From Parcubacteria bacterium C7867-008 (lineage in GTDB: Bacteria > Patescibacteriota > Minisyncoccia > Phycocordibacterales > Phycocordibacteraceae), in assembly GCA_001189215.1 (NCBI GenBank), contig LFCR01000004.1, positions 162,244 to 226,243 of the forward strand: a DNA stretch of 64,000 nt, in the 5' to 3' direction. Shown one piece after another: positions 2,304 to 55,350 of this stretch. The notes below the pieces were generated by a model, which was given only the letters and a program-made list of their open reading frames with translations, had not been told where the DNA came from and ran no database searches. The position numbers and the translations under genes are program-made. The number at the start of each line of letters is the position of its first letter. Position 1 is the stretch's first letter.

Positions 2304-2419
2304 AAAATTAATGAAGAGTGGTAAGCCAAAAGCTTGCCATTTTTCAGTTATATCCTATTATGAATAAGCGACCAGAGGGGTCGTTTTTAGTTGTTTATTT
2401 TGTTCTGGGGAGAACAGCT

Positions 2420-2962
2420 GTGAAGGATGCGTTGTATAACACCAAAGAAGGCCGGACCCGTCTGCTCGATGAACTGACGGCCATCGGCGCCAAACGTGTC
2501 GAACTCGAACGCAAGCGGGGTGAAAATCGTCAGCATACCGGAAGAGGCCATGCTGATGATGATGAGTGTGGTGACCTCGATAACCTGCTCATCTCCTGTA
2601 TCGCCAGACAGGGTGAGATCCAGGACATCTTCAGTGTGACCGGCGGCAATGTTGCTCCGCCGCCGACCAACACCCTGAGCGTCCAGCTCGGCAGTGTCGT
2701 CACGGTGAGGAGGTTTGCCAACGACAGCGACAACAAAGGGGAACTGTACACGTTCCAACTCGTTGGACACGGCGAGGGCATGGCGACCGGTAACGGAGCC
2801 GGCCTGTCTCCGAAGCTTCCGCTGATCAGCTACACTTGTCCGCAAGGTGAAGCGGTCCTGCGGAAAGAAGTTGGGGACGAAGTCGTCGTCAACGGAAAAG
2901 ATCAGGAGATTGTGGCCATACAGCTCCTGAACACCTATCAGGAGCTGCCAATGGCAGCCTGA
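2420..2962 (+). CDS. GreA/GreB-family (Rnk-like) transcription factor paralog, GC-rich foreign-looking cassette
   Basis: C-terminal pattern G..VTV...D....LVG..E....LSP...LISYTCPQGEAVLRKEVGDEVVV matches the GreA C-terminal FKBP-like domain. GTG start 7 nt after GGGGAG. GC visibly higher than neighbours. The in-frame ORF could start as early as 2318. Confidence 0.55.
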   Translation: MKDALYNTKEGRTRLLDELTAIGAKRVELERKRGENRQHTGRGHADDDECGDLDNLLISCIARQGEIQDIFSVTGGNVAPPPTNTLSVQLGSVVTVRRFANDSDNKGELYTFQLVGHGEGMATGNGAGLSPKLPLISYTCPQGEAVLRKEVGDEVVVNGKDQEIVAIQLLNTYQELPMAA

Positions 2963-2984
2963 ACCGCCCAGAAGGGCACTATGT

Positions 2985-3027
2985 GCGCCGCAGATTCGTT
3001 GGGGATCTGCGGCGTTCACTTTTTACT
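2985..3027 (+). terminator. intrinsic terminator after the GreA-like cassette
   Basis: Stem cgccgcagat/atctgcggcg followed by ttcacttttta. Confidence 0.65.
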
Positions 3028-3061
3028 CCATTCTTTATATAGCCTGTGCTATCGTAGATTC

Positions 3062-4015
3062 ATGAACGAAGACAAGCCCGTCCTCCTCTCAGGCATAAAG
3101 CCCACGGGAGAGATCCATATTGGTAACTATTTTGGTGCAATTAAACAGTTCGTTGAACTCTTGAATGATGATTCTCGTCAGGGCTTCGTCTTTATCGCGG
3201 ATTATCACGCACTTAACTTCATACAGGATGCTTCTGAAATGAAGCGTCTCACACGAGATCTTGCACGTGCATACATTGCGTGTGGTCTAGACCCTGAGAA
3301 GGTAGTGTTGTTTAAACAATCTGATGTATCTGCGCACACAGAACTTGCATGGATCTTCGATACCATCACTACCATGCCGTATCTCATGCGTGCACATGCA
3401 TTTAAAGACGCTGAAGCAAAGAATAAAGAAATCGTTGTTGGCACCTTCAACTACCCAATGCTTATGGCAGCAGACATTCTTCTATACGATGCATCGGTGG
3501 TACCGGTAGGGCAGGATCAGAAGCAGCATATTGAGTACGCACGTGATACTGCAGAGAAGTTCAATCGTATCTTTGGTGAGACATTTAGACTCCCTGAACC
3601 GCATATTCTTTCCGACGTTGCGGTAGTACCTGGTACTGATGGTCGCAAGATGAGTAAGAGTTATGGGAACACCATTCCGCTCTTTGCTTCTCGTGAACAA
3701 CTTGCCGACTGCGTCATGGGTATTGTTACAGACTCCGGCAATGATCGCCCTGAGAACGTATATGCCATTCATCGCCTCATTAAGACCGAGGAGGAACTCG
3801 CTCCTGTATACGAAGAACACAAAGGGAAGTACAAGGCATTGAAGGAAGCACTTATCGATGATCTTGATGCGTTCATTGCGCCTATGCGTGACCGTTTTGA
3901 ATCTCTAACAAACGATACAGAGATAGACGAGATCCTTGAAAAGGGTGCTCAGGTTGCGCGCAGCCACAGTGAGCATAAGATGGACACAGTCCGTCGAGCA
4001 ATCGGCGTCCGTTAG
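3062..4015 (+). CDS. trpS: tryptophanyl-tRNA synthetase
   Basis: PTGEIHIGNY and KMSKSYGN motifs. Start set at ATG 3062 (MNEDKPVLL) because the ORF-track start at 2981 lies inside the upstream terminator. Confidence 0.85.
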   Translation: MNEDKPVLLSGIKPTGEIHIGNYFGAIKQFVELLNDDSRQGFVFIADYHALNFIQDASEMKRLTRDLARAYIACGLDPEKVVLFKQSDVSAHTELAWIFDTITTMPYLMRAHAFKDAEAKNKEIVVGTFNYPMLMAADILLYDASVVPVGQDQKQHIEYARDTAEKFNRIFGETFRLPEPHILSDVAVVPGTDGRKMSKSYGNTIPLFASREQLADCVMGIVTDSGNDRPENVYAIHRLIKTEEELAPVYEEHKGKYKALKEALIDDLDAFIAPMRDRFESLTNDTEIDEILEKGAQVARSHSEHKMDTVRRAIGVR

Positions 4016-4028
4016 AAGGAGGTCTTTC

Positions 4029-4250
4029 GTGCCCCAAGAAACATTCACCGGTGAAGACCGGTACAAGCAGCTGGAGCGGTGGCGTGCCGTGATGGCAACG
4101 CGATCTGAAAAGTTCGCCATCCTCGAACACCGCAACAAAGCGGGGACAAGTGATGCTGAACCGACGGTAACCGTCGACTACTTCTTCCCTGAAGATGCCC
4201 CTGTCTCAGACATGCCCTGTCCCACGTGCGGTGGGAGACCCGAAGCCTAG
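4029..4250 (+). CDS. small GC-rich protein (74 aa) with a CPTCGG half zinc-ribbon, unknown function
   Basis: GTG start 7 nt after the strong SD AAGGAGG (4015-4021). GC-rich codons. Own terminator. Confidence 0.5.
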   Translation: MPQETFTGEDRYKQLERWRAVMATRSEKFAILEHRNKAGTSDAEPTVTVDYFFPEDAPVSDMPCPTCGGRPEA

Positions 4251-4272
4251 CGGTTTCGGGTCTTACTTTTAC
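4238..4272 (+). terminator. intrinsic terminator overlapping the stop codon of the small ORF
   Basis: Stem acccgaagcc/ggtttcgggt, loop tagc, then cttacttttac. Confidence 0.65.
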
Positions 4273-4290
4273 ATGCTATTTTAGGAATAT

Positions 4291-7775: not shown

Positions 7776-7822
7776 ATGAAGGTCCCGGAACTCACCGAGT
7801 TCCGGGCCTACTCCTCACATTG

Positions 7823-8071
7823 TTAGTGAGGCTTCTTAGTGATATCGGATGAAGCGGTTACTCCAGACCCAAGTTCATACACTTTCCAGCACACCACTTC
7901 TGGTTTTTCCGGGACCAGGCGCTGTGTGGAACACACAATGCCTTTGGGTGGATTTGTGGCGTCGATGACCTCCGCGTGAGGATCATCGAGACGAATGGAC
8001 ACCACCCGCCCTAGGCTTGGTGGGGTCACCACCGTAGCAGCTAGTGCAGCGGCGAGAAGGAACTGATACAT
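7823..8071 (-). CDS. small secreted protein (82 aa, signal peptide), GC-rich cassette
   Basis: N-terminal MYQFLLAAALAATVVT. SD AAGAGG on the - strand. Hairpin 7784-7806 downstream. Confidence 0.45.
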   Translation of the reverse strand: MYQFLLAAALAATVVTPPSLGRVVSIRLDDPHAEVIDATNPPKGIVCSTQRLVPEKPEVVCWKVYELGSGVTASSDITKKPH

Positions 8072-8177
8072 GATTGAACCTCTTGGATGACTTGCTGCAC
8101 TATACGTGTATACCGTGATATTTCAATGAACACAGACTGGACATTCCCCCAAAATATAGCTTTCCAGTAGGTACCGA

Positions 8178-16254: not shown

Positions 16255-16899
16255 ATGACTACCGATGATTCTGCAAAAAAGATCTGGGAGTATATGCAGC
16301 TTCATCATGAGCTTGAGAAAGCAGATGCCCTCTTTGTGCTTGGGAGTAGCGACCTTCGTGTTGCAGAATACGCTGCCGACTTATATCTAGCTGGGTGGGC
16401 ACCACTCATTATATTTTCTGGAAAGGAGGGTCGAGCGAAGACTACACGTGAGTGGACCGGTCTTACCGAGGCTGAAAAGTTTGGTGAAATTGCACTCGAA
16501 CGAGGTGTACCTGAAGATGCAATTCTTCTTGAAAAGGAAGCAACCAATACCGGAGAGAACATTATTTATACAAAACGATTACTAGAAGAAAGTAACATAG
16601 CACCAAAGAAACTTATCTTACTGCAGAAGCCGTACATGGAGCGTCGCACCTATGCGTCTTTTATGAAGCAGTGGCCAGGTATGGATTTTATCGTTAGCTC
16701 TCCGAATCTTACCTTTGAAGAATATCCCTTTGGGACAAAGACTAAAGAATATTTGATCAATATGATGGTTGGGGATCTCCAACGAATTAAAGAATACCCA
16801 GCTCTTGGGTTCCAAATCGAGCAAGAAATTCCAAGTGGTGTTTGGGAAGCATATGAGCAATTAGTTGCAGAAGGGTATACGAGCCACTTGATCCACTAG
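16255..16899 (+). CDS. DUF218/YdcF (ElyC-like) family protein
   Basis: ALFVLGSSD...TNTGENI pattern. Confidence 0.6.
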   Translation: MTTDDSAKKIWEYMQLHHELEKADALFVLGSSDLRVAEYAADLYLAGWAPLIIFSGKEGRAKTTREWTGLTEAEKFGEIALERGVPEDAILLEKEATNTGENIIYTKRLLEESNIAPKKLILLQKPYMERRTYASFMKQWPGMDFIVSSPNLTFEEYPFGTKTKEYLINMMVGDLQRIKEYPALGFQIEQEIPSGVWEAYEQLVAEGYTSHLIH

Positions 16900-16956
16900 A
16901 TAAAAAGGTAGGGGACCGACGCTCGGACGAAATAGTATCGTCGTTGCGTCGGTCCC
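16899..16956 (-). terminator. intrinsic terminator for the - strand cassette
   Basis: Perfect stem gggaccgacgc/gcgtcggtccc. A-run on + strand upstream gives a T-run on the - strand. Confidence 0.65.
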
Positions 16957-16964
16957 GTGTCGGC

Positions 16965-17204
16965 CTATTCGGCCGTGTGCCAGACGATGGTCGCGTCCTC
17001 GAGGTCGAGGAAGCCGCCGACCATGCTGTTGAAGTTCATCATCCTGCTGGGGTCGATCTCGATCTCGTAGACGAGGTCGACCTTGGTGAACCTGATCGCC
17101 TCCGAGCACTGGAGGGCCTCCAGGTTCTTCGGCAGCTGCCCGTTGGGCTTGGTCAGGGTCAGGGTGACCTTGGTCCAGGGCTTGGTGGCGGTTTGCGTGT
17201 TCAT
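16965..17204 (-). CDS. 79-aa GC-rich protein of unknown function
   Basis: ATG preceded by AGGAG on the - strand. GC visibly high in 16900-17210. Terminator immediately downstream. Confidence 0.5.
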   Translation of the reverse strand: MNTQTATKPWTKVTLTLTKPNGQLPKNLEALQCSEAIRFTKVDLVYEIEIDPSRMMNFNSMVGGFLDLEDATIVWHTAE

Positions 17205-17306
17205 CAGAACTGCTCCTCTGCTTGCGTTCTGGATATACTAATAACATAGTATAGTTATTTTGTCAATATCAGGGGATTTTAGCCCAATCTGTGGATACCT
17301 CTGATC

Positions 17307-19113: not shown

Positions 19114-19347
19114 ATGAAAACGCTACTTTTCGGTGCAGTCGCATTAGCTGCCGTGGTCGCCGTCCCGGGCGTCTCCCTCGCGCAGACCTATGCATACGTT
19201 AACCAGAGCGGAGAAGTGATGACCACGGATGCACCCAATGCAAACCAGGCCATTATGACCGCTCCAAATATCGGCCTACATAGCGGAGTAATGCTGCTCC
19301 AAGACAGCTCTGATCCCGTTGTGGGCGATACGGTGAACGGCGTCTAG
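19114..19347 (+). CDS. small secreted protein (77 aa, signal peptide), GC-rich cassette
   Basis: N-terminal MKTLLFGAVALAAVVAVPGVSLA. Perfect 14-bp terminator downstream. Confidence 0.5.
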   Translation: MKTLLFGAVALAAVVAVPGVSLAQTYAYVNQSGEVMTTDAPNANQAIMTAPNIGLHSGVMLLQDSSDPVVGDTVNGV

Positions 19348-19367
19348 CTCTTTGCTCTTTCGTTCAG

Positions 19368-19410
19368 CATACAGGGACGGCTTTCGCCGTCCCTGTATGC
19401 ATTTACTTCA
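19368..19410 (+). terminator. intrinsic terminator
   Basis: Stem catacagggacggc/gccgtccctgtatg, loop tttc, T-rich tail. Confidence 0.65.
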
Positions 19411-25865: not shown

Positions 25866-26336
25866 ATGAAACGACCGATTACCCTTACCCGTGGACAGCT
25901 GACGGGAATGATCTCAGCCCAGAACGCGGTCTCGTACATGCTCCTAGACACCCAAGATGGGAAAGTCGTGGGAGCCACCCGGAGACAGGTCTGCTGGGTA
26001 GAGCTAAAGATCAGACGCTTTGACGACGTCGCCATGGACCAGAGCGTCCATCACAAACATGTGATGCGCGGCACGATGGCGTATCAGGAACCCGACGGCA
26101 CGTCCATCGAGTTTCGGGTCCTTTCCATCTACACCACCCAGAATCCAACCGGAAAAGGACGGCGTCACAACTGTCCAACGAGTCTGCGGGTTCGAATCAC
26201 CTCACCCTTCGGCAAGCCGGTGGAACGAGGTTTCGAAGCGGGAATGGTCGAAATTTTCAGGACCGGACGCAACTACGAACAGCATCTCGCTGAAGTCCGG
26301 GACATGAGACCCACACCCGAACCAGATAGCTATTAG
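25866..26336 (+). CDS. 156-aa GC-rich protein of unknown function
   Basis: SD AAGGGAGAG before the ATG (MKRPITLTRGQL). GC-rich codons. Terminator 110 nt downstream. Confidence 0.5.
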   Translation: MKRPITLTRGQLTGMISAQNAVSYMLLDTQDGKVVGATRRQVCWVELKIRRFDDVAMDQSVHHKHVMRGTMAYQEPDGTSIEFRVLSIYTTQNPTGKGRRHNCPTSLRVRITSPFGKPVERGFEAGMVEIFRTGRNYEQHLAEVRDMRPTPEPDSY

Positions 26337-26445
26337 ACTACTAAACCGCAGAAAAGGTCCGATCCCTTCCTGCGATTGAGCAAGAAGAATTGCATCTAAC
26401 TGTTCAACCCCAAGGACAAAAGTCCGGGCACTTAATCCCAAACTG

Positions 26446-26480
26446 GCACCGCCCACAAGGCGGTGTCTTTATTATTTACT
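26446..26480 (+). terminator. intrinsic terminator
   Basis: caccgcc-cacaa-ggcggtg then tctttattattt. Confidence 0.55.
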
Positions 26481-30999: not shown

Positions 31000-31058
31000 G
31001 CCCTGGCTCATCACACACCCTATTCTGTAGCTGAATAAGCTGCATTCGCACATACAAG

Positions 31059-31100
31059 AAGGCGCCGCTCCCCCGTGGGACGGCGCCTTTTCTTATTGTC
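31059..31100 (+). terminator. intrinsic terminator (also sits downstream of the convergent rplI)
   Basis: aaggcgccg...cggcgcctt with inner tccc/ggga, then ttcttattg. Confidence 0.65.
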
Positions 31101-31535: not shown

Positions 31536-31655
31536 ATAGAGCTATCCTAGCCTGTTATGCCTCATATCGCAACCAGGTCTTTTTGACATTATATATTTAT
31601 ATACTACTATTCTTTTGAAGTTCGTAAGTTCAATTCTTTGGGAGAAACCGCAGGG

Positions 31656-31877
31656 ATGTTCATCGCTACCCTGCTAGCTTCCCCGGTTGACTTGATTATC
31701 CTCGTGAATCGAGGGGCGACTGAGCAGAAAGAGCGCGAGCAGAAAACAGCCTTCTTTGTGGAGCGAGCCTGCAACACGGTCCCGCTCAGCATCTGTCGGG
31801 TGAGGCCACCGTCTTCAATCGCAGAAACGGCGCAGAGCAGTACTACCGCGTCGCAAATGCACGTTTGTACCGCATGA
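31656..31877 (+). CDS. 73-aa GC-rich ORF (unknown function), first of a coupled pair
   Basis: ATG after gggag..gcaggg. Its stop overlaps the next ATG as ATGA. Confidence 0.35.
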   Translation: MFIATLLASPVDLIILVNRGATEQKEREQKTAFFVERACNTVPLSICRVRPPSSIAETAQSSTTASQMHVCTA

Positions 31878-31978
31878 ATACCGATGGCACGATCACAGGA
31901 GAACCAGCGACACTTCCAGCAGGATGCTTCAACGGACAACTCTTCTGCTCGAGCGAATTCAATCCGTTTGATCTGTGA
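31874..31978 (+). CDS. 34-aa GC-rich ORF coupled by an ATGA overlap
   Basis: ATGA start/stop overlap. Terminator 25 nt downstream. Confidence 0.3.
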   Translation: MNTDGTITGEPATLPAGCFNGQLFCSSEFNPFDL

Positions 31979-32006
31979 CGAGAGTCGGCATGATAAATAC
32001 GGAGTG

Positions 32007-32038
32007 GGGGCGGCCTTTTATGGGGCCGCCCTTTCTCG
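32007..32038 (+). terminator. intrinsic terminator
   Basis: gggcggcc-ttttatgg-ggccgccc then tttctcgtat. Confidence 0.65.
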
Positions 32039-32042
32039 TATC

Positions 32043-34334: not shown

Positions 34335-35017
34335 GCATGAGTAAGAAAGTAGTGTGGATAATTGGTATCGCTATTGCGGTAATAGGTCTTCTTTTTTGCA
34401 TTGAGCAGTTCTTAGCAGCAAGTTATGTAGTGAAGACAGGTTTGAAAATAATGCTCTTCTTAGTTTTGCCGCTTATATGGGCACTTAGGTATGAACGTAC
34501 ACAAATAGCAACAATCCTCGGATTGAAAGGATTTACGTACAAAGGTCTTGTTCCGGGAGTGCTTATCGGTGCCGGTTCATTTCTAATAATTCTCGCCGCA
34601 TATGCAATACTCGGAACATTTATTGATTTTCCAGCAATCGCACATAACCTCCAGTCTAAGTTAGGAATAACACCAGCAAACTTCTTGTGGGTTGGGTTAT
34701 ATGTAATTGGTATCAACTCATTACTTGAAGAATTCTTCTTTAGAGGATTCGTCTTTCTAAACCTGCGAGGTAATACTCCCGTGTGGTTTGCTTATGTATT
34801 CTCTGCTGGATCATTCGCGCTCTACCATATGGCGATCATTGCCGGATGGTTTAACCCAATACTTATGACGTTGGCTCTCACCTCCTTGTTTGTGGTGGGT
34901 CTCGTATTCAATATGCTTAATAGGAAGTCTGGTCATTTCCTTAACTCATGGGTCGCACACGCTATGGCAGACAGTGCCATTATTCTCGTCGGTTGCAGAG
35001 TGTTTAATATTCTCTAA
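34325..35017 (+). CDS. CPBP-family (CAAX) intramembrane metalloprotease
   Basis: LLEEFFFRGF motif. Polytopic. Confidence 0.7.
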   Translation: MAVGMSKKVVWIIGIAIAVIGLLFCIEQFLAASYVVKTGLKIMLFLVLPLIWALRYERTQIATILGLKGFTYKGLVPGVLIGAGSFLIILAAYAILGTFIDFPAIAHNLQSKLGITPANFLWVGLYVIGINSLLEEFFFRGFVFLNLRGNTPVWFAYVFSAGSFALYHMAIIAGWFNPILMTLALTSLFVVGLVFNMLNRKSGHFLNSWVAHAMADSAIILVGCRVFNIL

Positions 35018-35124
35018 GAGCGAGAAATTGACATTTTAGCAAATCATGATTATATAGCATTGCGTCAATGATGGCGCTCTATGACCTGACTTCGTAACCC
35101 GAAGCAGAGTGAAAGGACCGCTCT

Positions 35125-35586
35125 ATGAAAATTATGCGTTTGAGTGCCACCGATGGCTCGCCATGTGGGGTGATCAATCTGGCTTTCGTACTGGACAACG
35201 TCGATCTGCAAGACGGTCAATACGTCCTGAGTATGCGAGATGAATACCCTTTGGCCTACGTTTCCTACAAAGACGGGACTAAGGCCCATGGTGAAATCTT
35301 CGGGAGTTTCTCCCTGCGCGATGCCCGCGCTCGTCTGCGACCCACGGTTCATAAGGACGGCAGACACATGGTGGAGATCGGGGTCGAAAGCCCGAATGTT
35401 CCTGACTTCCTCGCCCTGTCTGCCAAGATCTATGGTGAGGTTCTTCGGATCCCGATCAGGACCTTCGAGAAGGACCAGGAATTCCCCGGAAACCTAACCT
35501 TCATCGACGGTATCCGGAACGCTCTGGGTCGACTCCGTCGCTACATCGCGGAGCAACTCAAACGCATGCGGCTCATCAGAGCCTAA
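35125..35586 (+). CDS. 153-aa GC-rich protein of unknown function
   Basis: SD AAAGGA 8 nt before the ATG. GC-rich. Own terminator. Confidence 0.5.
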   Translation: MKIMRLSATDGSPCGVINLAFVLDNVDLQDGQYVLSMRDEYPLAYVSYKDGTKAHGEIFGSFSLRDARARLRPTVHKDGRHMVEIGVESPNVPDFLALSAKIYGEVLRIPIRTFEKDQEFPGNLTFIDGIRNALGRLRRYIAEQLKRMRLIRA

Positions 35587-35601
35587 CGCCATCCAACGGA
35601 G

Positions 35602-35638
35602 AGCCGCCCGCTCCCCCGCGGGTGGCTTTTCGTTTTTA
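35602..35638 (+). terminator. intrinsic terminator
   Basis: agccgcccgc-tccccc-gcgggtggct then tttcgttttta. Confidence 0.65.
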
Positions 35639-35666
35639 CCCCTAGCACATATGATACGGTGTATCT

Positions 35667-40418: not shown

Positions 40419-40452
40419 ATAAAACGCAAGGCCGCCCGGGAACCGGGCGGCC
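40419..40452 (-). terminator. intrinsic terminator
   Basis: ggccgcccgg-gaa-ccgggcggcc with a T-run on the - strand. Confidence 0.6.
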
Positions 40453-40461
40453 AATCAGGCC

Positions 40462-40674
40462 TTAGGCGAGCTTGCAGACATGGATTCGGTAGCAAGAGGT
40501 GGGCGAAACCTGAATAACCGGCCTATCTAAAGCGCGTATAGGGTGTACTTCCTGGGAGACATGGGGATGCGGTGGTCCCATTTTAACCAGCAGGAAGATG
40601 AGGCACACGGCCCCTAAAGCAAGGGCCAGGACCGTAAGTAGCGGCGTGAAGTCACGCCTTACTTTTTTGATCAT
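40462..40674 (-). CDS. 70-aa small membrane protein, moderately GC-rich
   Basis: GGAG 9 nt upstream of ATG (MIKKVRRDFTPLLTVLALALGAV). The ORF-track version is extended upstream. Confidence 0.35.
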   Translation of the reverse strand: MIKKVRRDFTPLLTVLALALGAVCLIFLLVKMGPPHPHVSQEVHPIRALDRPVIQVSPTSCYRIHVCKLA

Positions 40675-42340: not shown

Positions 42341-42406
42341 TCCTTTGACTTTCAGTGCACGGGCACTATGATACCGACAGGTACCCACAGTAATGGAGAG
42401 TGAAGG

Positions 42407-42778
42407 GTGACCAGGTTCATTTCGTTCAATGAAGTCGCTCGATACGAGATTCAAGTTGGCATCAAACACGCAAGCACAAGGCATCGTCTGTTATTTAGCT
42501 TGGACGAAGACAAAGTCCGCAGAATCGCGAACCGAGCCGGCAAGAACATGCACGACAGGCACTGGGAGGCCAGACGTGCAATACCGGAAGCGATTGAAGC
42601 AGTACTGGCACCTGAATCACGCCGTGGTGCATATGCAACCGCATATAGCTCCGCCGTGTCGAAGATCTTCAGTGATAGGAGCGCAAAAGCGCGAAGACAG
42701 GCTGCACAGCGGCGACGGGAAGCCAACATGCCTGTTCGACCCGCACAACAACTCCACTTCCGATTCGTTCTGGACTGA
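42407..42778 (+). CDS. 123-aa basic GC-rich protein of unknown function (GTG start)
   Basis: GGAGAG upstream of GTG. Arg-rich. Terminator follows. Confidence 0.4.
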   Translation: MTRFISFNEVARYEIQVGIKHASTRHRLLFSLDEDKVRRIANRAGKNMHDRHWEARRAIPEAIEAVLAPESRRGAYATAYSSAVSKIFSDRSAKARRQAAQRRREANMPVRPAQQLHFRFVLD

Positions 42779-42798
42779 CGCATGCGAGGGGAGAATTG

Positions 42799-42833
42799 AG
42801 GGCCGCTGTCTTTTGGACGGCGGCCTTTCTCGT
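42799..42833 (+). terminator. intrinsic terminator
   Basis: ggccgctgtc-ttttg-gacggcggcc then tttctcgt. Confidence 0.6.
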
Positions 42834-42847
42834 ACTAGAGTGGAGTA

Positions 42848-43663: not shown

Positions 43664-43728
43664 TATTGACAATTTAAGTAATTGTTGTTAATATAGTTTC
43701 AGAATATTCCTCCTGTAGAAAGAACCGT

Positions 43729-43884
43729 CATGAGCATAGTGCCTCAAGGAATGGTTTCTCTCGACGACTGGCTGACGCGATTCATTATCGCAATTGGCTG
43801 CATCGCCCTCGTGTGGACTCCAATATATCTATGGGGTGCATACAAAGAATATCGAGAGCGTGTTCGAAAGAGACCCTCGAAGAA
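43729..43884 (+). CDS. 51-aa single-TM micro-protein (below ORF-track cutoff)
   Basis: MSIVPQGMVSLDDWLTRFIIAIGCIALVWTPIYLWGAYKEYRERVRKRPSKKL. Own terminator. Confidence 0.35.
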
Positions 43885-43900
43885 ACTCTAACCGCCCACC

Positions 43901-43938
43901 GCCCCCGGACATCTGTCTGGGGGTTATCGTTTGTCTTT
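43901..43938 (+). terminator. intrinsic terminator
   Basis: cccccgga-catctg-tctggggg then ttatcgtttgtctttt. Confidence 0.6.
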
Positions 43939-43965
43939 TGACCAACCATACAAATAATTGTATAT
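43937..43965 (+). promoter_or_regulatory. sigma70-like promoter: TTGACC, 17 nt spacer, TATATT
   Basis: Consensus-like -35 and -10 with ideal spacing. SD GAGGA 8 nt before ATG 44004. Confidence 0.55.
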
Positions 43966-44003
43966 TCACAGCGGACGTTTTTCACAACCAGAGGATATGG
44001 TCC

Positions 44004-45875
44004 ATGAGACTCATAGCAATCATCGTGATGCTTCTGTCCATGGTCAACGTGGATGTGAGCTGGGCAAAAGACAAGCCAATCGGCGGCCTCTGTGGAGGCG
44101 CCTATGTCGGCTCCAACACCTGCGTATGGAATGAGGACACTCATGAGTGGACCGAAACATACGTGGGCTGGGACAACTGGGAGTGGCAGACTATCGCCAA
44201 CCAGCCAGAACTTGCTCCGGCTATCCGTCGGATGCATCTCCCCCGGCAGGTGCCGGTTGAGAAGAGATACTCGATCAGTCTGAATACCAAAGCGTGTTTG
44301 AAGCCGGAGTATCATCTCCTTCTCGGCGCTGCGGTTATGCCTTCGAACCGAAAGCCAATTGCGACCACGCGTCGTGTGGTGATCATAAATGTTGAAGGCG
44401 GAGACTGGCCTGAAGAATCCCGCATCTGGCCGCATCTGGGTATCAATTACGTGGGGACGGTCGCAAAACAGGAAGGCTTCGACGTCGTTCTGTACGACGA
44501 GCTTATTCAGAGGCGCAAGCCGCTGGAAGAACTTATTCGTCCCGGCGACATCGTCGGCCTCAGCCTTGTCAGCACCGGCATCGAACGTGGCGTCCTCGTC
44601 GCGCAAGAAGCTAAGGCACTTGGTGCCCGCTACGTTATCGCTGGAAACGACTCGGCGATGTTCCGTGCCCGGCAGCTCCTCGAGCTTCCTGACCGGCCCA
44701 TCGACGCCGTCTTCACCAGCAACAGCGTCGTGACACTCCGGGAGTTCTTCCGAAATGCAGACGCGGTGATCGCAGGTTCGATGCAGATCGAGCAAGTGGC
44801 AACCGCACCTGAACAAGTGCCGTACGTCTCCAACGAACACGCAGGTGTTGCGGTGGAGCGTAAGGCATACACCGAAGAAGACTTCTTCTTGGTCCCAAAC
44901 CTCTCACTCTTCAGCGACGAGTACTGGGAGCTGGTTCGAACTGCGTATCGTTCGCAGTTCGGACACAAGCACCAAGACCCTGCCAACGTCCGTAATGCCA
45001 TCGCGCTTCTTGCGCAAGGCTGTGGACGCGCCGGAATGGGCGATATCTGCGACTACTGCACCATCCGCCATGTGGCGAATGTGGTGCAGCCGCCCCCGGG
45101 GTATCTAGAGGAGACTCTCGCCACCTATCGGGCACAGGGTGTGAATACCTTCTTCAATGTGACGGACTCAGCCTTTGAGATGGGAGTGCTCGCAAAACAG
45201 CTCGAAGAAGCTGGTCCGGTGGACACACTCATCATCTACGGTAGAGCGCAGGCAATCGCGCAGCGTCCAGACCTCCTTGAACGGTGGAAAGGATGTGTGA
45301 CCGAACGTCTGCTCATCAATTGCGGTATGGACTCAGGAAGTGAGCGTATCCTGCAAACCGGCATCAATAAGTCCGGAAGTAAGGTGGGTTCAAGGCTTGA
45401 AGAGAACTATCGGGCGCTGGCCAACATCAAGGCGGCGGGCCCCAAGGTTCACTTGCACTTCTCTGTTATCTTCGGTTCACCGGGAGAGACGCATGAGTCG
45501 TGCGAGGCTACACTGCATTTCGTGCAGCATGCGATCGACACGCTCGGTGAGCAGCTCGACGTCGTCGAGGGCGATATTTTCTGGGTTAACTTCGGAGCAC
45601 CGTGCAGTGAGATCTTCACGGACTACAAAGCAGCACAGAAGCGCGCTCTGCTTGCTGGGAAGAGTATATCCCGGGACGAGTGGCACCAGTACTTCGCCCG
45701 TCACGCTGATGAGCTTGCCGTGCCGGAGGAATCCCAGCACGCCTGGTACACCTTCTTTACGAGCATCACCATCAAAGAGGCGTGGGCGTACAATGCTCAG
45801 GTCCGTGGCATGCTCGAACAACTACCTGGCCACATCACCGGTCGGAACTATGCGTTCAAGCCACCTACGGTGTGA
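44004..45875 (+). CDS. B12-binding-domain radical-SAM-like protein with N-terminal hydrophobic/Trp-Cys-rich extension
   Basis: Rossmann-like B12-binding region (RRVVIINVEGGDWPE..GDIVGLSLVS). Cys cluster CGRAGMGDICDYC (CX8CX2C). GC-rich. Start set after the internal terminator and promoter, not at 43794. Confidence 0.55.
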   Translation: MRLIAIIVMLLSMVNVDVSWAKDKPIGGLCGGAYVGSNTCVWNEDTHEWTETYVGWDNWEWQTIANQPELAPAIRRMHLPRQVPVEKRYSISLNTKACLKPEYHLLLGAAVMPSNRKPIATTRRVVIINVEGGDWPEESRIWPHLGINYVGTVAKQEGFDVVLYDELIQRRKPLEELIRPGDIVGLSLVSTGIERGVLVAQEAKALGARYVIAGNDSAMFRARQLLELPDRPIDAVFTSNSVVTLREFFRNADAVIAGSMQIEQVATAPEQVPYVSNEHAGVAVERKAYTEEDFFLVPNLSLFSDEYWELVRTAYRSQFGHKHQDPANVRNAIALLAQGCGRAGMGDICDYCTIRHVANVVQPPPGYLEETLATYRAQGVNTFFNVTDSAFEMGVLAKQLEEAGPVDTLIIYGRAQAIAQRPDLLERWKGCVTERLLINCGMDSGSERILQTGINKSGSKVGSRLEENYRALANIKAAGPKVHLHFSVIFGSPGETHESCEATLHFVQHAIDTLGEQLDVVEGDIFWVNFGAPCSEIFTDYKAAQKRALLAGKSISRDEWHQYFARHADELAVPEESQHAWYTFFTSITIKEAWAYNAQVRGMLEQLPGHITGRNYAFKPPTV

Positions 45876-45898
45876 TTCGATTCTCTATTAGTTCCTTG

Positions 45899-45932
45899 TC
45901 CCGCGTCTACATGGCGCGGGATTTTCTTTTTA
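45899..45932 (+). terminator. intrinsic terminator
   Basis: tcccgcg-tctacatgg-cgcggga then ttttctttttat. Confidence 0.65.
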
Positions 45933-45967: not shown

Positions 45968-45972
45968 TCGTG

Positions 45973-46044
45973 TGACCCTACGGGGAATCGAACCCCGATT
46001 TCCTGCGTGAGAGGCGGGCGTCCTAACCGTTAGACGATAGGGCC
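45973..46044 (-). tRNA. tRNA-Glu (anticodon CTC), no encoded CCA
   Basis: Cloverleaf GGCCCTA..TCGATTCC..TAGGGTCA. Anticodon loop ctCTCac. One C-A mismatch in the anticodon stem. Confidence 0.75.
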
Positions 46045-46070: not shown

Positions 46071-46108
46071 GGTACAAGAAAAGCGACGCGCTCCCGGGCG
46101 CGTCGCTT
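46071..46108 (-). terminator. intrinsic terminator
   Basis: aagcgacgcgc-tcccgg-gcgcgtcgctt with a T-run on the - strand. Confidence 0.65.
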
Positions 46109-46128
46109 ACATCTCCTCAAATTGGTGT

Positions 46129-46437
46129 CTAGTTAATCTTGACCACCTGGATGGGCGATACAAAGTACGGGAATCCTTCGAGCCGTAAGGTCCAGGTAGA
46201 AGTTACTTCCAGGATCTTGTGGTTGGTATCTGGCTTTCCCTCGAACGCCACCAGATCCCCAACAGCAAGAGCCTTTCTAATAACGGCGTTATGCCGCTTC
46301 TCATCCGAGGAATCCCCAATGAAGTGTTTGGGAACATTTGCTGCACGCACAACGCTCGTGTGCACTTTCAAACCGAAATTGTGCGATCGACCATTGTCTC
46401 TTCGTACTCTTCGTGCGCCAGAACTCCAGCCTGCCAT
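46129..46437 (-). CDS. 102-aa protein of unknown function, moderately GC-rich
   Basis: AGGGGAG before the ATG (MAGWSSGARR). Terminator downstream. Confidence 0.45.
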   Translation of the reverse strand: MAGWSSGARRVRRDNGRSHNFGLKVHTSVVRAANVPKHFIGDSSDEKRHNAVIRKALAVGDLVAFEGKPDTNHKILEVTSTWTLRLEGFPYFVSPIQVVKIN

Positions 46438-46500
46438 TGTGAAATTCTCCCCTACTAACCTAAAGCGCACTATACTCCCCTTTTTCTGTTTGTATAGAAG

Positions 46501-51197: not shown

Positions 51198-51321
51198 TAG
51201 TGAGTGGCAGCGGTTTGAGAGGAATGTGATTCATTCCCACTTCATCCCACTAGTTAGTAAGTATATGACACAACTTCCCACCATGCCCTATTTATCCCCA
51301 CAACTAAGGGTTATTTGTCCT

Positions 51322-51351
51322 TTGACAGGTACGCTTCATACCCTGTATGCT
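51322..51351 (+). promoter_or_regulatory. candidate sigma70 promoter (TTGACA, 18 nt spacer, TATGCT) upstream of an orphan hairpin
   Basis: Reads + strand in the mraZ-upstream spacer. No ORF follows before the hairpin. Confidence 0.25.
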
Positions 51352-51467
51352 TGGAGGACATGGTTTCTTACGTCCGCTACTTTATCTTCAAGCATATCTT
51401 CGGCCTTACCCCGGTCGAGGTTTCGATTGAGATTTCTAAGTAGCAGGACTTCCCCACAGAAATTTGA

Positions 51468-51508
51468 ATCGAGGCTTTGACCGGTAGTCAAAGCCTCGAT
51501 TTTCGTTT
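51468..51508 (+). terminator. orphan intrinsic terminator-like hairpin
   Basis: atcgaggctttgac-cggta-gtcaaagcctcgat then tttcgttt. No + strand CDS upstream. Confidence 0.45.
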
Positions 51509-51540
51509 AGTCCTTTCACTGTAGAAGAAGAGGGAGAGAT

Positions 51541-52032
51541 ATGCGTACGTCTATGAAAGTTTCCTACGGCGTTTTCCCGGGAGATACCTACGCCGTCAAT
51601 GCGCTTACACGACTCCGTGAACTGATCAGCACAGGAACCAGCGAAGGCTCTGCTGCACATCTGTCGGAGTGTCTCATCACAGATTCCGACGACGTCACCC
51701 CAGATATGGTGGTCTTCCTGACACCGAAGAAGCTGGAATTTGCGGGACGATATTTCCGTGTCCTGCAGCTTGCAAACAAGCAATCACAGAATCGGGGACG
51801 ATTCCTGGACCTCGTCCCTGAACACGCACATATAGCAACACGGTTCGTCTTCGTGAACCAGGGAGCCAATCAACTGCAACGCGATCAGCGGACAGGCACC
51901 CTGAAGGCAGATATAGCACTCATGGGTGTTCATGGGACCTTCGGGGGATGCCAGTTGCGACGATCAGCAGTAGCGTCAATGGTAAAGGGTCAACACGACC
52001 GCATGCGACCTCCCTATTTCGTAAGCGTCTGA
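51541..52032 (+). CDS. 163-aa moderately GC-rich protein of unknown function
   Basis: AGGGAGAG before the ATG. Own terminator. Confidence 0.45.
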   Translation: MRTSMKVSYGVFPGDTYAVNALTRLRELISTGTSEGSAAHLSECLITDSDDVTPDMVVFLTPKKLEFAGRYFRVLQLANKQSQNRGRFLDLVPEHAHIATRFVFVNQGANQLQRDQRTGTLKADIALMGVHGTFGGCQLRRSAVASMVKGQHDRMRPPYFVSV

Positions 52033-52051
52033 TTCGTACACGCTTCAAAGC

Positions 52052-52088
52052 GATGGCGCCCCTTGTGGGCGCCATCTTCTTTTATATT
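52052..52088 (+). terminator. intrinsic terminator (between convergent genes)
   Basis: gatggcgccc-cttgt-gggcgccatc then ttcttttatatt. Confidence 0.65.
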
Positions 52089-53648: not shown

Positions 53649-53834
53649 GCCATGCTTGTGGTGTCCTTTTGTCTTTCAACGATTCTGATGTTCGGGTCAC
53701 TCGCAATGTGGATATACACCTCTTTTGCGGACCCTGATCATCCGAACTCATACTGGATAGCGATGCTCAGCTTCGCAGCCATAACCTTCGTACTATCAGT
53801 TGCGCTGAGTCTTCGACGGGGCAGGCGCGCTTGA
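53649..53834 (+). CDS. small membrane protein (about 61 aa)
   Basis: Two hydrophobic helices. Hairpin plus T-run at about 53855-53895. Confidence 0.3.
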   Translation, partial: AMLVVSFCLSTILMFGSLAMWIYTSFADPDHPNSYWIAMLSFAAITFVLSVALSLRRGRRA

Positions 53835-53891
53835 TGATGGCGGTCCGAAAGAAAAACCTCCGCGGCGACGCGGAGGACTTTCTATTTCTAC

Positions 53892-54365
53892 TTACGCTAC
53901 CTTCTCTACGTGATACGTTTGTTTTCCGTTTGGCGTTTCAAAGGTGAAGCTATCTCCCTTCCTCTTTCCCATAAGTGCAGCACCAAGTGGTGATACATGT
54001 GAGAGTTTGTGTGCACGCATGTCTGCTTCTTCAGAGCCGACAATCATGTACTCGTGCATATCAGAACCACCATCTTTCTTGATGACTACTGAAGAACCGA
54101 ATCCCACAACATCCTTCTTCTTACCGTCAGTGACGATCTTTGCACGCTTTACGAGCTCTTCGAGTTTACGAATACGTTCTTCTGTTGCCGCTTGGAGATC
54201 GCGCGCCTCCTGATACTCTGCGTTCTCAGAGAGATCTCCAAGTGAACGAGCGTATTCAAGATTTTTTGCAATTTCAGTACGACGAACGGTCTTAAGGTTT
54301 TCGAGTTCCTTAACCATCTCGTCGAACTTCTCTTGGCTGACCATTGTTTCTTGTTCAGTCATCAT
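53892..54365 (-). CDS. greA: transcription elongation factor GreA (backbone copy)
   Basis: Canonical GreA N-terminal coiled coil (GDLSENAEY) and C-terminal domain. Backbone codon usage. Confidence 0.85.
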   Translation of the reverse strand: MMTEQETMVSQEKFDEMVKELENLKTVRRTEIAKNLEYARSLGDLSENAEYQEARDLQAATEERIRKLEELVKRAKIVTDGKKKDVVGFGSSVVIKKDGGSDMHEYMIVGSEEADMRAHKLSHVSPLGAALMGKRKGDSFTFETPNGKQTYHVEKVA

Positions 54366-54420
54366 GTGAAATTAATATGAAAGTACCCGTATTGTACGTG
54401 GCGCAGCTGGCGCGTCAACA

Positions 54421-54456
54421 AGTGAAAAAGAGGGCCCCCATGCTTGCGCATGGGGG
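54421..54456 (-). terminator. intrinsic terminator
   Basis: gcccccatgc-ttgc-gcatgggggc with a T-run on the - strand. Confidence 0.65.
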
Positions 54457-54475
54457 CGAGATAATCCGGATTCTA

Positions 54476-55183
54476 TTATTGAGGGTTGGCGAAGGCCAGC
54501 AGCTTCCGCTCGTCGAGGTTTCGAACGACGAAAGTCATATCGTCGGGACCAATCGGTCCCGTGCCGGCAATCTTCTTCACGATAATATTCCATTTCCCTT
54601 CGTAGGGTCGGAGAATGCCGATACAGTCTTCATCCTTCCCTGTGTCGAGAAAGAAGTACGTCGGCTCGTCCGTCGTGTTGATCGAGAGAGGCAGGTCGCC
54701 GGTCAGAGCATGCAATGCCATCGCTTCGGCTTGCGCGAGCGTGAGCGTATAGCCGAGAGCTCGCACCGTCTGTCCAAACGGCATATGAAAGGAAAGCTCT
54801 CGAAACCCGGGAAGCTGTTCGGCGATCTGACGAAGATTGGATCTCTCCGTCAGACGCAACTTTGTGCCGATGCAGACGTTTGAACTCGACTGGCGTCCAG
54901 AGAACTGGGTTGCGGAAATCGATCGCTGCAGCCATGAATCTCCCACGCAGCATTCGGCGGTGTCCTTCTCCACGGTGTCAGGAATATAGAAACATCCCTG
55001 AGTCGTGAAGCGAGACGGTTCACGATATTTCTCGATCAGCCGTTCGAGCTCCACATCGAAGCCGTTCTTCCTTCGGCGAATGTGGTCCCCTTGGCGTTTG
55101 TTCAGGCCCTTGAGAAGTTTGGTCAGGGTGTCATGAAGCTCGCGCTTCGTGTTTCCGGACGCATTAACCTTACGTTCAAGCAT
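54476..55183 (-). CDS. 235-aa GC-rich protein of unknown function
   Basis: GGAG 9 nt before the ATG. GC-rich. Terminator downstream. Structured leader upstream. Confidence 0.5.
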   Translation of the reverse strand: MLERKVNASGNTKRELHDTLTKLLKGLNKRQGDHIRRRKNGFDVELERLIEKYREPSRFTTQGCFYIPDTVEKDTAECCVGDSWLQRSISATQFSGRQSSSNVCIGTKLRLTERSNLRQIAEQLPGFRELSFHMPFGQTVRALGYTLTLAQAEAMALHALTGDLPLSINTTDEPTYFFLDTGKDEDCIGILRPYEGKWNIIVKKIAGTGPIGPDDMTFVVRNLDERKLLAFANPQ

Positions 55184-55236
55184 GGTAGTCTCCAGCCCGG
55201 TTATTTAACGGCAGGGCGCGCCTTCTCCCCTCTCTG

Positions 55237-55285
55237 TGAGGTGAGCTCTCTAGCGCCTAGATAAGGCGCCACAGAGCTCACCTCA
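55237..55285. repeat. nested inverted repeat (13-bp outer stem, 5-bp inner stem) in the leader of the GC-rich gene / 3' of mrdA
   Basis: tgaggtgagctct...gcgcc..ggcgc...agagctcacctca. Confidence 0.5.
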
Positions 55286-55350
55286 AGAATCCATAATCAA
55301 AGAGCAGCAAGTACTATAATACATATATTACGGTATTTGTCAATTTGTCG

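Follow-up and report, generated by a model that had tools for sequence, protein, structure and literature searches.

Flexible single-gene units with GC-rich synonymous sites at the operon boundaries of a conserved gene backbone in Parcubacteria bacterium C7867-008

Parcubacteria bacterium C7867-008 (LFCR00000000) is a metagenome-assembled genome (MAG) with a size of 808 kb and a GC content of 48%, recovered from groundwater of the Hanford 300 Area and described in 2015 by Nelson & Stegen (PMC4508563; statements on this article concern the parts of it covered here). The stretch analysed, hereafter the window, comprises 64,000 nucleotides (nt) of contig LFCR01000004.1; its GC content is 0.484, and its proteins are GenBank entries AB203_00990 to AB203_01300. 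A first-pass annotation of the window had flagged a series of open reading frames (ORFs) as GC-rich, individually terminated single-gene cassettes within a housekeeping backbone. The analysis reported here shows that the flagged ORFs are flexible, fast-turnover genes, which form independent transcription units at the operon boundaries of a conserved backbone.

Genes and units of the window

The backbone encodes, among others, the tRNA synthetases TyrRS, TrpRS, Asx/Lys-type enzymes, GluRS and CysS, together with ScpA/B, MraY, FtsW, MurG, DnaB, RecR, the ribosomal proteins L21, L27 and L9, TruB, the mraZ-mraW-ftsL-PBP-Mur cluster (PBP, penicillin-binding protein), the genome's own GreA (53892-54365), MreB/C and RRF; tRNA-Tyr lies at 2218-2303 and tRNA-Glu at 45972-46044 on the minus strand. 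The flagged ORFs appear in GenBank as hypothetical proteins (AB203_00990, _01015, _01090, _01170, _01195, _01245, _01255, _01285 and _01300). The units are listed below, with protein lengths in amino acids (aa) and the G+C fraction at third codon positions (GC3); in the text, an ORF is cited by its lower coordinate.

Unit 1, 2334..3015, plus strand: promoter-like sequence 2334-2361, ORF 2420-2962 (180 aa, GTG start, GC3 0.66), terminator 2985-3015; directly downstream of tRNA-Tyr.
Unit 2, 4029..4264, plus strand: ORF 4029-4250 (73 aa, C-terminal CPTCGG, GC3 0.64) with an AGGAGG Shine-Dalgarno (SD) sequence, terminator 4235-4264 overlapping the stop codon.
Unit 3, 7784..8126, minus strand: promoter-like sequence 8126-8099, ORF 8071-7823 (82 aa, hydrophobic N-terminus, GC3 0.53, marginally atypical), terminator 7806-7784; scpA/scpB interval.
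Unit 4, 16905..17265, minus strand: ORF 17204-16965 (79 aa; first, second and third positions, GC1/GC2/GC3, 0.49/0.38/0.97), GAGGAG SD, TTGACA box upstream, long-loop terminator ~16955-16905.
Unit 5, 19114..19400, plus strand: ORF 19114-19347 (77 aa, signal peptide, no SD, GC3 0.62), terminator 19367-19400.
Unit 6, 25866..26467, plus strand: ORF 25866-26336 (156 aa, GC3 0.65, chance of a stop-free frame 0.003), GGGAG SD, terminator 26445-26467.
Unit 7, 29779..31095, plus strand: ORF 29779-30999 (406 aa, GC 0.61, GC3 0.67), bidirectional terminator ~31058-31095 in common with rplI; L27-L9 slot.
Region of the claimed ORF 31656-31978, 31583..32040, plus strand: promoter-like sequence 31583-31610, terminator ~32005-32035; L9-S41 slot.
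Unit 9, 35012..35640, plus strand: TTGACA-type promoter region, ORF 35125-35586 (153 aa, GC3 0.65), terminator 35608-35625.
Unit 10, 40430..40674, minus strand: ORF 40674-40462 (70 aa, one transmembrane helix, C-terminal CYRxHxCKL, GC3 0.59), terminator 40452-40430; L21-RmuC slot.
Unit 11, 42345..42824, plus strand: promoter-like sequence 42345-42372, ORF 42407-42778 (123 aa, Arg-rich, GTG start, GC3 0.53), terminator 42805-42824; YqeY-TruB slot.
Extra unit inside the claimed ORF 43729-45875, 43666..43924, plus strand: promoter-like sequence 43666-43694, ORF 43730-43891 (53 aa, one transmembrane helix, basic tail, GC3 0.50), terminator 43901-43924.
Unit 12, 43938..45922, plus strand: promoter-like sequence 43938-43966, ORF 44004-45875 (623 aa, hydrophobic N-terminus, GC3 0.66), terminator 45898-45922; abuts tRNA-Glu.
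Unit 13, 46081..46496, minus strand: promoter-like sequence 46496-46469, ORF 46437-46129 (102 aa, basic, GC3 0.54), terminator 46108-46081.
Unit 15, 51322..52076, plus strand: promoter-like sequence 51322-51351, ~150-nt structured leader or small RNA (sRNA), ORF 51541-52032 (163 aa, GC3 0.55), terminator 52052-52076.
Unit 14, 54425..55345, minus strand: promoter-like sequence 55343-55316 (11/12 consensus), ORF 55183-54476 (235 aa), terminator 54457-54434.

Several of these frames differ from earlier calls. The ORF claimed at 31656-31978 is wrong, its length not being a multiple of 3 and a stop falling at 31877; the region 31583-32040 contains weak ORF candidates only, namely plus-strand frames of 73-79 aa that end at 31877 and a minus-strand frame of 110 aa, and it has no Rfam match. 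The claimed ORF 43729-45875 comprises two genes, coding for 53 and 623 aa. As for ORF 42407, gene callers took the 139-aa frame 42429-42848, which has 32% identity to the sister genome C7867-007 versus 67% for 42407-42778; the frame of the first-pass annotation is therefore the right one. The ORF of unit 1 is entered in GenBank in a 200-aa version (KND49643.1). Finally, public annotations (JGI, Logan) place a 128-aa ORF on the minus strand or a 101-aa ORF on the plus strand at 16861-17249, both off-frame to the 79-aa ORF of unit 4; these calls translate to low-complexity sequence and cross the terminator. Judged from the SD, the promoter box and the terminator, the predicted gene at 16861-17249 is the 79-aa ORF and not the annotated frames.

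Regarding the architecture of the units, all in-frame ORFs have a strong GC-stem/T-run terminator, as had been proposed, and at least eight flagged ORFs have a near-consensus sigma-70 promoter. The GGAG-type SD attributed to them is present 5-10 nt upstream of ~12 of the 14 ORFs, with 19114 lacking one and 29779 having a weak one; the units lie on both strands and in intergenic slots only. Backbone operons carry the same terminator type (e.g., 25601-25630, 27010-26991 and 29657-29689); therefore, what had looked like uniform packaging is the normal monocistronic gene architecture of this genome. The chance of a stop-free frame in composition-matched sequence is P ≤ 0.006 for ORFs of at least 100 codons; the short ORFs (53-82 codons) are individually non-significant by length (P 0.04-0.11). 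A signal peptide or a transmembrane helix occurs in five products (7823, 19114, 29779, 40462 and 43730).

Base composition and codon usage

The in-frame flagged ORFs (n = 14) are GC-rich as claimed, with a GC of 0.51-0.61 and a GC3 of 0.53-0.97 (mean 0.64), against a GC3 of 0.42 (standard deviation 0.047) in 53 backbone genes (Mann-Whitney p = 8e-9). Their GC1 and GC2 approximate those of the backbone, so that the shift is essentially one of synonymous sites. Codon counts agree with the contrast drawn earlier: the backbone fractions are 0.39 for CTT, 0.49 for GCA, 0.46 for CGT and 0.43 for GGT, while those of the flagged ORFs are 0.34 for CTG, 0.31 for GCC, 0.21 for CGG and 0.37 for GGC. The pooled ORFs also differ in GC-normalised dinucleotide signature (delta* 0.075 versus a null of 0.029 ± 0.009, z = 4.9), with TA down and CG and GA/TC up. 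By leave-one-out codon log-likelihood, 12 of the 14 favour the cassette model and stand apart from all in-frame backbone genes; the ratio is ~0 for 7823 and 46129. GC3 does not spill over significantly into neighbouring genes (0.44 in the proximal 60 codons versus 0.41 in the rest, p = 0.09). In composition, codon usage and oligonucleotide signature, the flagged set is thus atypical in the way that parametric detection of horizontal acquisition looks for.

Two simple causes of the GC3 excess were rejected. High expression does not account for it: ribosomal protein genes exceed the mean by only 0.03-0.08, and rare-type codons ending in G are also used in the 79-aa ORF. A GC-rich neutral equilibrium fails as well, because the intergenic GC is 0.47, terminator stems included, meaning that unconstrained DNA is not GC-rich.

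It should be noted that the flagged set was chosen by GC, and that the same slots hold unflagged accessory genes (39120-40043, 34325-35017 and 27023-27460) with a backbone-like or lower GC3. The gene at 34325-35017 (CAAX-protease-like, 226-230 aa) and that at 39120-40043 (307 aa, without a Pfam family) are both present in C7867-007 and have no match in ~80 loci of other species (tblastn, E ≤ 1e-4); their GC3 is 0.39-0.40 and they are under purifying selection, with a ratio of nonsynonymous to synonymous divergence (dN/dS) of 0.07 for 39120-40043. GC-richness is therefore not common to all slot genes.

Comparison with the sister genome C7867-007

C7867-007, the sister genome, was obtained from the same sample as C7867-008, and its contig LFCQ01000003 (L087) corresponds to the part of the window from 33.4 to 56.7 kb; for the region of 3-25 kb, a GluRS metagenome scan aimed at a C7867-007 copy retrieved only distant loci (at most 51% identity). 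Between the two genomes, backbone proteins share 72-98% identity, and their genes are saturated at synonymous sites, the proportion of synonymous differences (pS) being 0.44-0.79. The units fare as follows in C7867-007.

35125-35586: whole unit absent; CAAX-cysS gap of 38 bp.
54476-55183: whole unit absent; greA-PBP2 gap of 63 bp.
44004-45875: 88% identity, same site, GC3 0.60.
42407-42778: 67% identity, GC3 0.57.
40462-40674: 41-48% identity, GC3 0.60.
51541-52032: 173-aa orthologue, ~27% identity.
46129-46437 and 43730-43891: no tblastn match; weak local alignments only.

The unit of 35125 differs from L087 by a clean indel of ~610 bp without flanking repeats. As for the two ORFs without a tblastn match, a weakly similar 65-aa ORF stands in the place of 43730, and a 101-aa ORF in that of 46129, with an alignment score of 61 versus 24.6 ± 4.6 for shuffles; the score of 51541 against its orthologue is 91 versus 31.8 ± 5.8. 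The similarity is significant for 40462, 51541, 46129 and 43730, since 0 of 500 shuffles reach the observed score. Five ORFs (40462, 42407, 43730, 46129 and 51541) thus have diverged positional orthologues in C7867-007, at ~25-67% amino acid identity.

The divergence is concentrated in the ORFs. In the slot of 46129, the flanks with promoter and terminator are ~80-100% identical at the DNA level and the ORF ~50%; in that of 51541, DNA identity is 87-100% upstream, 90% downstream and again ~50% over the ORF, which is the level of unrelated sequence. Both ORFs are nonetheless open over a similar length in the two genomes, with a stop-free chance of 0.001-0.006. The slot genes of C7867-007 have a GC3 of 0.56-0.65, against 0.36-0.50.

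Gene order and variable slots in relatives

A scan with DnaB gave 80 loci of related Paceibacteria, whose DnaB is 62-81% identical. The order LOG...L27-L9-S41-CorA-CysS-DnaB-RecR-L21-RmuC-YqeY-TruB-Mur-PBP is kept in dozens of species, and the backbone GC3 of relatives with this order goes from 0.27 to 0.87 (0.83-0.87 in L019, L049 and L050), a very wide span for one syntenic family (L003-L082). None of the seven cassettes of 27-48 kb has a tblastn match (E ≤ 1e-4) in these ~80 syntenic loci, which supports the earlier suggestion of an accessory gene set; so does the finding that nine cassette proteins, clustered at ≥ 90% identity in a collection of 15 billion proteins, have no members beyond C7867-008.

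The same inter-operon slots vary among relatives, some being empty (gaps of ~50 bp) and others holding mostly species-specific ORFs. Slot ORFs lack a match elsewhere in 31 of 34 cases for L21-RmuC and in 11 of 11 for CorA-CysS, counts of which a part will be spurious owing to mechanical ORF calling; the CorA-CysS spacing is 7-90 bp in most relatives. The L9-S41 slot, in turn, holds GC-rich ORFs in relatives, e.g., 5520-6119 in L009 (GC3 0.78).

In many relatives, the L21-RmuC slot (40393-40753 in the window) has an ORF of 60-150 aa with an N-terminal transmembrane helix or a signal peptide; these ORFs share no detectable similarity between species, and in other species the slot is empty (~50 bp). 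It harbours either a positionally conserved, extremely fast-evolving small membrane protein or the products of repeated gene gain.

Individual gene products

The first-pass annotation saw no recognisable homologue for the cassette ORFs, a view that fails for 2420 and 44004. ORF 2420 has the C-terminal domain of GreA/GreB (PF01272) at residues 87-163, with 31.9 bits against a cut-off of 26.9, and it is 24% identical to the genome's GreA; NCBIfam GreA models score far below their cut-offs, one of them aligning residues 4-168 (E = 3.5e-4), and the N-terminal coiled-coil domain PF03449 was not detected with Pfam. On these matches, 2420 is predicted to be a distant GreA/Gfh-like paralogue.

ORF 44004 has 174 homologues at 42-88% identity, of which the named ones belong to Patescibacteria lineages. 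Its own Pfam matches are below threshold, namely PF02310 (B12-binding) with 26.2 bits against a cut-off of 32.1 and PF04055 (Radical_SAM) with 19.4 against 29.5; precomputed matches to both families exist for some of the homologues. The Cys motif is C-x9-C-x2-C (GCGRAGMGDICDYC) and not the canonical CxxxCxxC. The gene is best described as putatively B12-binding/radical-SAM-like, from a family widespread in Patescibacteria. Its homologue in L175 and L177 has a GC3 of 0.72 and 0.67 in DNA of 52-54% GC, where it stands between the genes for a CCA-adding enzyme and for Exo_endo_phos, with those for a Xer-type recombinase and S15 beyond the latter; since homologues in other Paceibacteria have this different conserved neighbourhood, the site between TruB and tRNA-Glu is specific to C7867-007 and C7867-008.

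ORF 19114 has an orthologue in GCA_028286615.1 (L173, 14079-14312), 73% identical over 60 aa, with the same DUF3467 and Big_13 neighbours and a GC3 of 0.44 versus 0.62 in C7867-008; it is a conserved small secreted protein and not an orphan. ORF 29779 codes for a signal peptide, a Cys-containing N-terminal domain, Pro/Ala/acidic-rich regions and one transmembrane helix. The N-terminal domain is homologous to the ORF in the L27-L9 slot of L005 and L006 (BLASTP E = 3e-5), and these orthologues likewise carry a signal peptide and share with it the motifs EEQARQLP and TLWGxCE and a pair of conserved Cys; their GC3 is 0.80 in L005 and 0.74 in L006, versus 0.58 and 0.57 in the respective backbones.

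The remaining products are less informative. ORF 4029, with a weak sub-threshold match to DUF7559, is found at ≥ 90% identity only in C7867-008, and 25866 has no match in Pfam, PHROG, PADLOC or NCBIfam. For the 79-aa product of 16965, searches of protein, IMG/VR and GenBank phage and plasmid data gave no homologue, and no gene catalogue has the exact sequence; its AlphaFold model from the single sequence (pLDDT 72.8) is a compact beta-alpha-beta-beta-alpha-beta fold with generic ferredoxin-like matches only. ORF 54476 has seven weak homologues (26-31% identity, with clear common motifs) among 1.84 billion representatives, and its predicted fold has no structural match. By the ORFan criterion, 54476 and 16965 are ORFans; 44004, 19114 and 2420 are not. 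In outline, the functions would comprise five small membrane or secreted proteins, one transcription-factor paralogue and one enzyme, types that would be compatible with roles at the surface of an episymbiont, in its interaction with hosts or in conflicts.

Two units have conspicuous leaders. The gene for the 235-aa protein has an untranslated 5' region (55184-55345) of ~130 nt and in it, between the near-perfect promoter (55343-55316) and the SD, a long inverted repeat at ~55228-55285, CTCTGTGAGGTGAGCTCT...AGAGCTCACCTCA, which may be a regulatory hairpin. In the other, the stretch from mraZ to the 163-aa ORF (51198-51540; L087 17195-17538) is non-coding and 92% identical between the sisters, and 97-100% over ~230 nt, despite the saturation of synonymous sites in their genes; it has repeated TCCCAC-type motifs that are probably MraZ operator repeats. 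The ~150-nt structured RNA predicted upstream of 51541 (fold z = -4.5) has a perfect 16-bp stem and a T-run at 51466-51510; the stem is kept between the sisters while the loop differs, and Rfam has no match to the leader, which could be an sRNA or serve to attenuate transcription.

Two further features lie outside the units. A palindromic hairpin between the gene for the 307-aa orphan and rplU (40026-40062; L087 6047-6083) is 97% conserved between the sisters; it has weak sub-threshold matches to Rfam Thr_leader on both strands, and it is most likely a bidirectional terminator. The DUF218/YdcF protein at 16255-16899 has backbone composition; its best non-self match (73% identity) lies on contig L170, whose gene content does not resemble that of Patescibacteria and includes genes for an ECF sigma factor, ApbE, an FMN-binding protein, a DHFR-like protein and an aminotransferase. 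Further matches, at 57-59% identity, are named Blastocatellia, and the search returned no orthologue from C7867-007; the gene may be an inter-phylum transfer.

Origin of the units and of their GC3 excess

The flagged ORFs are not one system; their sequences are unrelated and their ages differ. All-against-all comparisons of the proteins, and of the DNA (blastn, cassettes with 150-nt flanks), found no common sequence. Integron attC sites were not found, the downstream hairpins being only GC-stem/T-run terminators of unrelated sequence, and no unit has flanking direct repeats of at least 9 nt except for one chance 9-mer. Direct adjacency to tRNA genes is limited to 2420 and 44004/46129, and tRNA-derived repeats are absent. 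A search for template/variable repeat (TR/VR) pairs gave no direct repeats of at least 30 nt across the window, save a 34-nt match inside two PBP paralogues, and no reverse transcriptase (RT) family occurs among the called genes of the public contigs. Neither these called genes (contigs covering ~6-64 kb of the window) nor the window genes scanned match Phage_integrase or another recombinase family of Pfam, in line with the earlier observation that integrase, transposase and attC are lacking. The 10 largest cassettes have no match in PHROG or PADLOC, four cassette proteins have none in IMG/VR, and tblastn against GenBank phages and plasmids gave no relatives of the cassettes tested. Structured RNAs in place of genes were also considered and rejected, as Rfam, at the gathering threshold and at E ≤ 1, returned only the two tRNAs and terminator-like noise.

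The set is instead a mixture. It includes units present in C7867-008 and absent from C7867-007 (35125-35586 and 54476-55183); slot-resident genes that diverge approximately neutrally while the flanking regulatory DNA is conserved (40462, 42407, 43730, 46129, 51541 and 29779); and the radical-SAM-like gene with its lineage-specific placement (44004), the conserved secreted protein (19114) and the GreA-like paralogue (2420). The common origin or insertion mechanism suggested by the first-pass annotation is not supported, in view of these clearly different ages and of the lack of mutual similarity, flanking repeats, duplications resembling attachment (att) or target site duplication (TSD) sequences, and a recombinase. 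Its description of the cassettes as compositionally foreign stands as far as atypical composition goes; several of the GC3-rich genes are long-standing residents of their slots. Orthologues of backbone composition at the same sites, which had been named as the observation that would speak against a foreign character, exist for 19114 in L173, while those of 29779 in L005 and L006 are GC3-raised instead.

As for the cause of the GC3 excess, the explanation favoured here, with about even confidence, is the acquisition of DNA from relatives in the family that are richer in GC. Such DNA would arrive as new genes or as replacement alleles, presumably taken up by natural transformation and recombined through the conserved flanks, with no dedicated mobile element involved, and the imported genes would then partly ameliorate. 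This is favoured because the GC3 gradient, from 0.64-0.97 in the units found in C7867-008 only and the 79-aa ORF to 0.50-0.60 in the units shared with C7867-007 (the radical-SAM-like gene excepted), is that predicted by amelioration; because the GC-normalised dinucleotide signature differs; because the composition of the radical-SAM-like gene agrees with that of its counterparts in genomes of higher GC (52-54%); because relatives with a backbone GC3 of up to 0.87 exist, and orphan GC3 regresses on backbone GC3 with a slope of 0.51, crossing at ~0.5; and because the shift in GC3 and codons is confined to the ORFs, without significant spill-over. Individually transferred genes detected in Patescibacteria come mostly from other Patescibacteria (PMC12455944), and Saccharibacteria have been shown to be naturally competent (PMC10187176).

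A number of results weigh against import. No donor was found for any orphan, with nothing at ≥ 90% identity beyond C7867-008 among the 15 billion proteins, and relatives on viral contigs, phages or plasmids and matches in PHROG or PADLOC are equally missing. ORF 19114 is GC3-rich in C7867-008 even though its conservation equals that of backbone genes, and the orthologues of 29779 in L005 and L006 also exceed their own backbone GC3 by ~0.2. ORFs 40462, 42407 and 44004 are GC3-high in both sisters despite saturated synonymous sites (pS 0.5-0.8), which is not what a simple one-off acquisition with subsequent amelioration would lead one to expect. The elevation of slot GC depends on lineage, being absent in L026, L013 and L010, and the regression of orphan GC3 on backbone GC3 is contaminated by spurious and wrong-frame ORFs. 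Finally, the difference at 54476 is unpolarised and may be a gain in C7867-008 or a loss in C7867-007.

The main alternative, which we regard as possible if rather doubtful, is that the ORFs are native, fast-evolving residents whose GC3 was raised in place, either by GC-biased gene conversion at hypervariable loci with frequent recombination among strains or by an unknown selection for G/C-ending codons in short transcripts with strong signals; the composition would then carry no information on foreign origin. Positional orthologues exist for 19114 (L173), 29779 (L005 and L006) and, in C7867-007, for 40462, 42407, 43730, 46129 and 51541; a GC3 of 0.53-0.66 persists in both sisters despite saturated synonymous divergence (dS), and divergence is limited to the ORF while promoter and terminator flanks are conserved. 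The offset of the 29779 orthologues and the lack of donors also fit residents better, and Lassalle et al. reportedly found in 2015 that recombining bacterial genes tend to a higher GC3. Residency does not explain, however, why two units are present as a whole in one sister and missing from the other, nor why the 79-aa ORF reaches a GC3 of 0.97 with all of its codons ending in G or C, including AGG, GGG and TCG, far beyond the offsets of resident genes. The dinucleotide signature differs too; moderately fast backbone genes (TruB, CAAX, 39120-40043) are not GC3-rich, and ribosomal genes gain only 0.03-0.08. Moreover, 19114 has an orthologue in L173 without the GC3 excess, and the GC of the slots is not elevated in several relatives.

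There is also a bolder proposal, which we hold to be unlikely: the units could be "sockets" of Paceibacteria genomes, fixed single-gene slots at operon boundaries with a conserved shell of promoter, leader and terminator, in which the ORF remains open while it evolves at the neutral rate or faster or is exchanged for divergent alleles, and is held GC3-rich in several lineages.

Remnants of phages or other mobile elements, i.e., "morons" left after integration and decay, are an improbable source. ORFans are frequently ascribed to phage, the layout of promoter, ORF and terminator resembles that of phage morons, 2420 and 44004/46129 abut tRNA genes, and the phages of Patescibacteria are poorly sampled; against this, PHROG, IMG/VR (four cassettes) and GenBank phages and plasmids gave no relatives, the 64 kb contain no integrase, att repeats or other phage genes, and several units are old positional orthologues.

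An artefact, whether a chimeric assembly or bin or spurious ORFs in GC-rich non-coding DNA, is very improbable, contrary to what the first-pass annotation had considered. The window is identical (100%, gap-free) to JGI contigs (metagenome 3300001199) and Logan contigs (SRR2043728), so that three assemblies agree across the junctions and every covered cassette is internal to a contig; the genome is a MAG, and the re-assemblies probably use reads of the same sample and are not fully independent. C7867-007, moreover, carries several of the cassettes in diverged form at the corresponding sites, with open frames of similar length in both sisters despite saturation. Spurious calls could be suspected among the ORFs of 53-82 codons, in 31583-32040, which lacks a convincing ORF, and at the two loci where gene callers took wrong frames; the longer ORFs (at least 100 codons) are not explained by chance, and three have Pfam matches or remote homologues.

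Least credible of all is a single cassette-type system with a common insertion mechanism, integron-like or novel: the uniform-looking packaging, the use of both strands and of intergenic slots only, and the reuse of slots across the family would suit it, but the window has no attC-like or common sequence, flanking repeats or recombinase gene, the units have their own promoters, heterogeneous ages and a dispersed, not arrayed, placement, and backbone operons share their SD and terminator style.

Relation to known systems

The genes are public, and lineage-specific ORFans or flexible genes, partly acquired horizontally, are a well-known kind. For this same genome, a large set of unique genes has already been reported in the covered parts of the article on the C7867 Parcubacteria genomes, where gene sets unique to single genomes are described (PMC4508563); those parts do not mention "GC content" or "horizontal", and they contain nothing on the GC3 excess, single-gene transcription units, slot reuse or hyper-divergence from C7867-007, and the 79-aa ORF with a GC3 of 0.97 lacks a correct-frame annotation there. 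Transferred genes and genomic islands of Patescibacteria (PMC12455944) are likewise compositionally atypical accessory DNA in streamlined genomes, and their origin, mostly within Patescibacteria, corresponds to the donor pool proposed here; unlike those islands, the units are single genes without island features or donors, and several are resident positional orthologues. ORFans such as those of E. coli, as treated in the covered part of PMC3514957, are also short, lineage-restricted, homologue-free, fast-evolving and compositionally atypical; the classical ones are AT-richer than their genome, whereas the flagged ORFs are GC-richer at synonymous sites.

Resemblance to mobile or diversifying systems is partial. 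Integron cassettes also have a single ORF, a foreign-looking composition and an unknown function; here, in contrast, there is no attC, IntI or array, and the units have their own promoters and terminators, on both strands, dispersed over 53 kb. Integrative elements differ in that the units are single genes without integrase, transposase or att/TSD repeats, and the targets of diversity-generating retroelements in that the called genes include no RT and the window no TR/VR pair. Replacement-type flexible islands occupy the same position between conserved genes with divergent content, and recombination mediated by the flanks is presumed for them. The known ones are multi-gene clusters, e.g., O-antigen or capsule loci; each locus described here, instead, is one small gene in a conserved shell of promoter and terminator. 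What is unusual is the bias toward GC, the occurrence of single genes in fixed slots, and the extreme divergence of the ORFs inside conserved regulatory shells.

Biological meaning

In conclusion, even a conspicuous pattern of composition in a MAG is not necessarily a sign of contamination or of a mobile-element system. It should also be noted that homology searches badly under-call orthology in such loci, as five to seven "orphans" are positional orthologues. If the pattern reflects the simple amelioration of occasional transfers, it is ordinary pangenome biology. If the GC3 excess instead reflects repeated import or recombination, these loci would mark the renewal of gene content in streamlined, host-dependent Patescibacteria without mobile elements, and the small membrane and secreted proteins would be candidates for interaction with hosts or phages. 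If, finally, the sockets are real, they would constitute a dedicated class of small, hyper-evolving proteins, of which many are membrane-bound or secreted, perhaps engaged in an episymbiotic arms race, and the GC3 excess would be the footprint of unusually frequent recombination at these slots.

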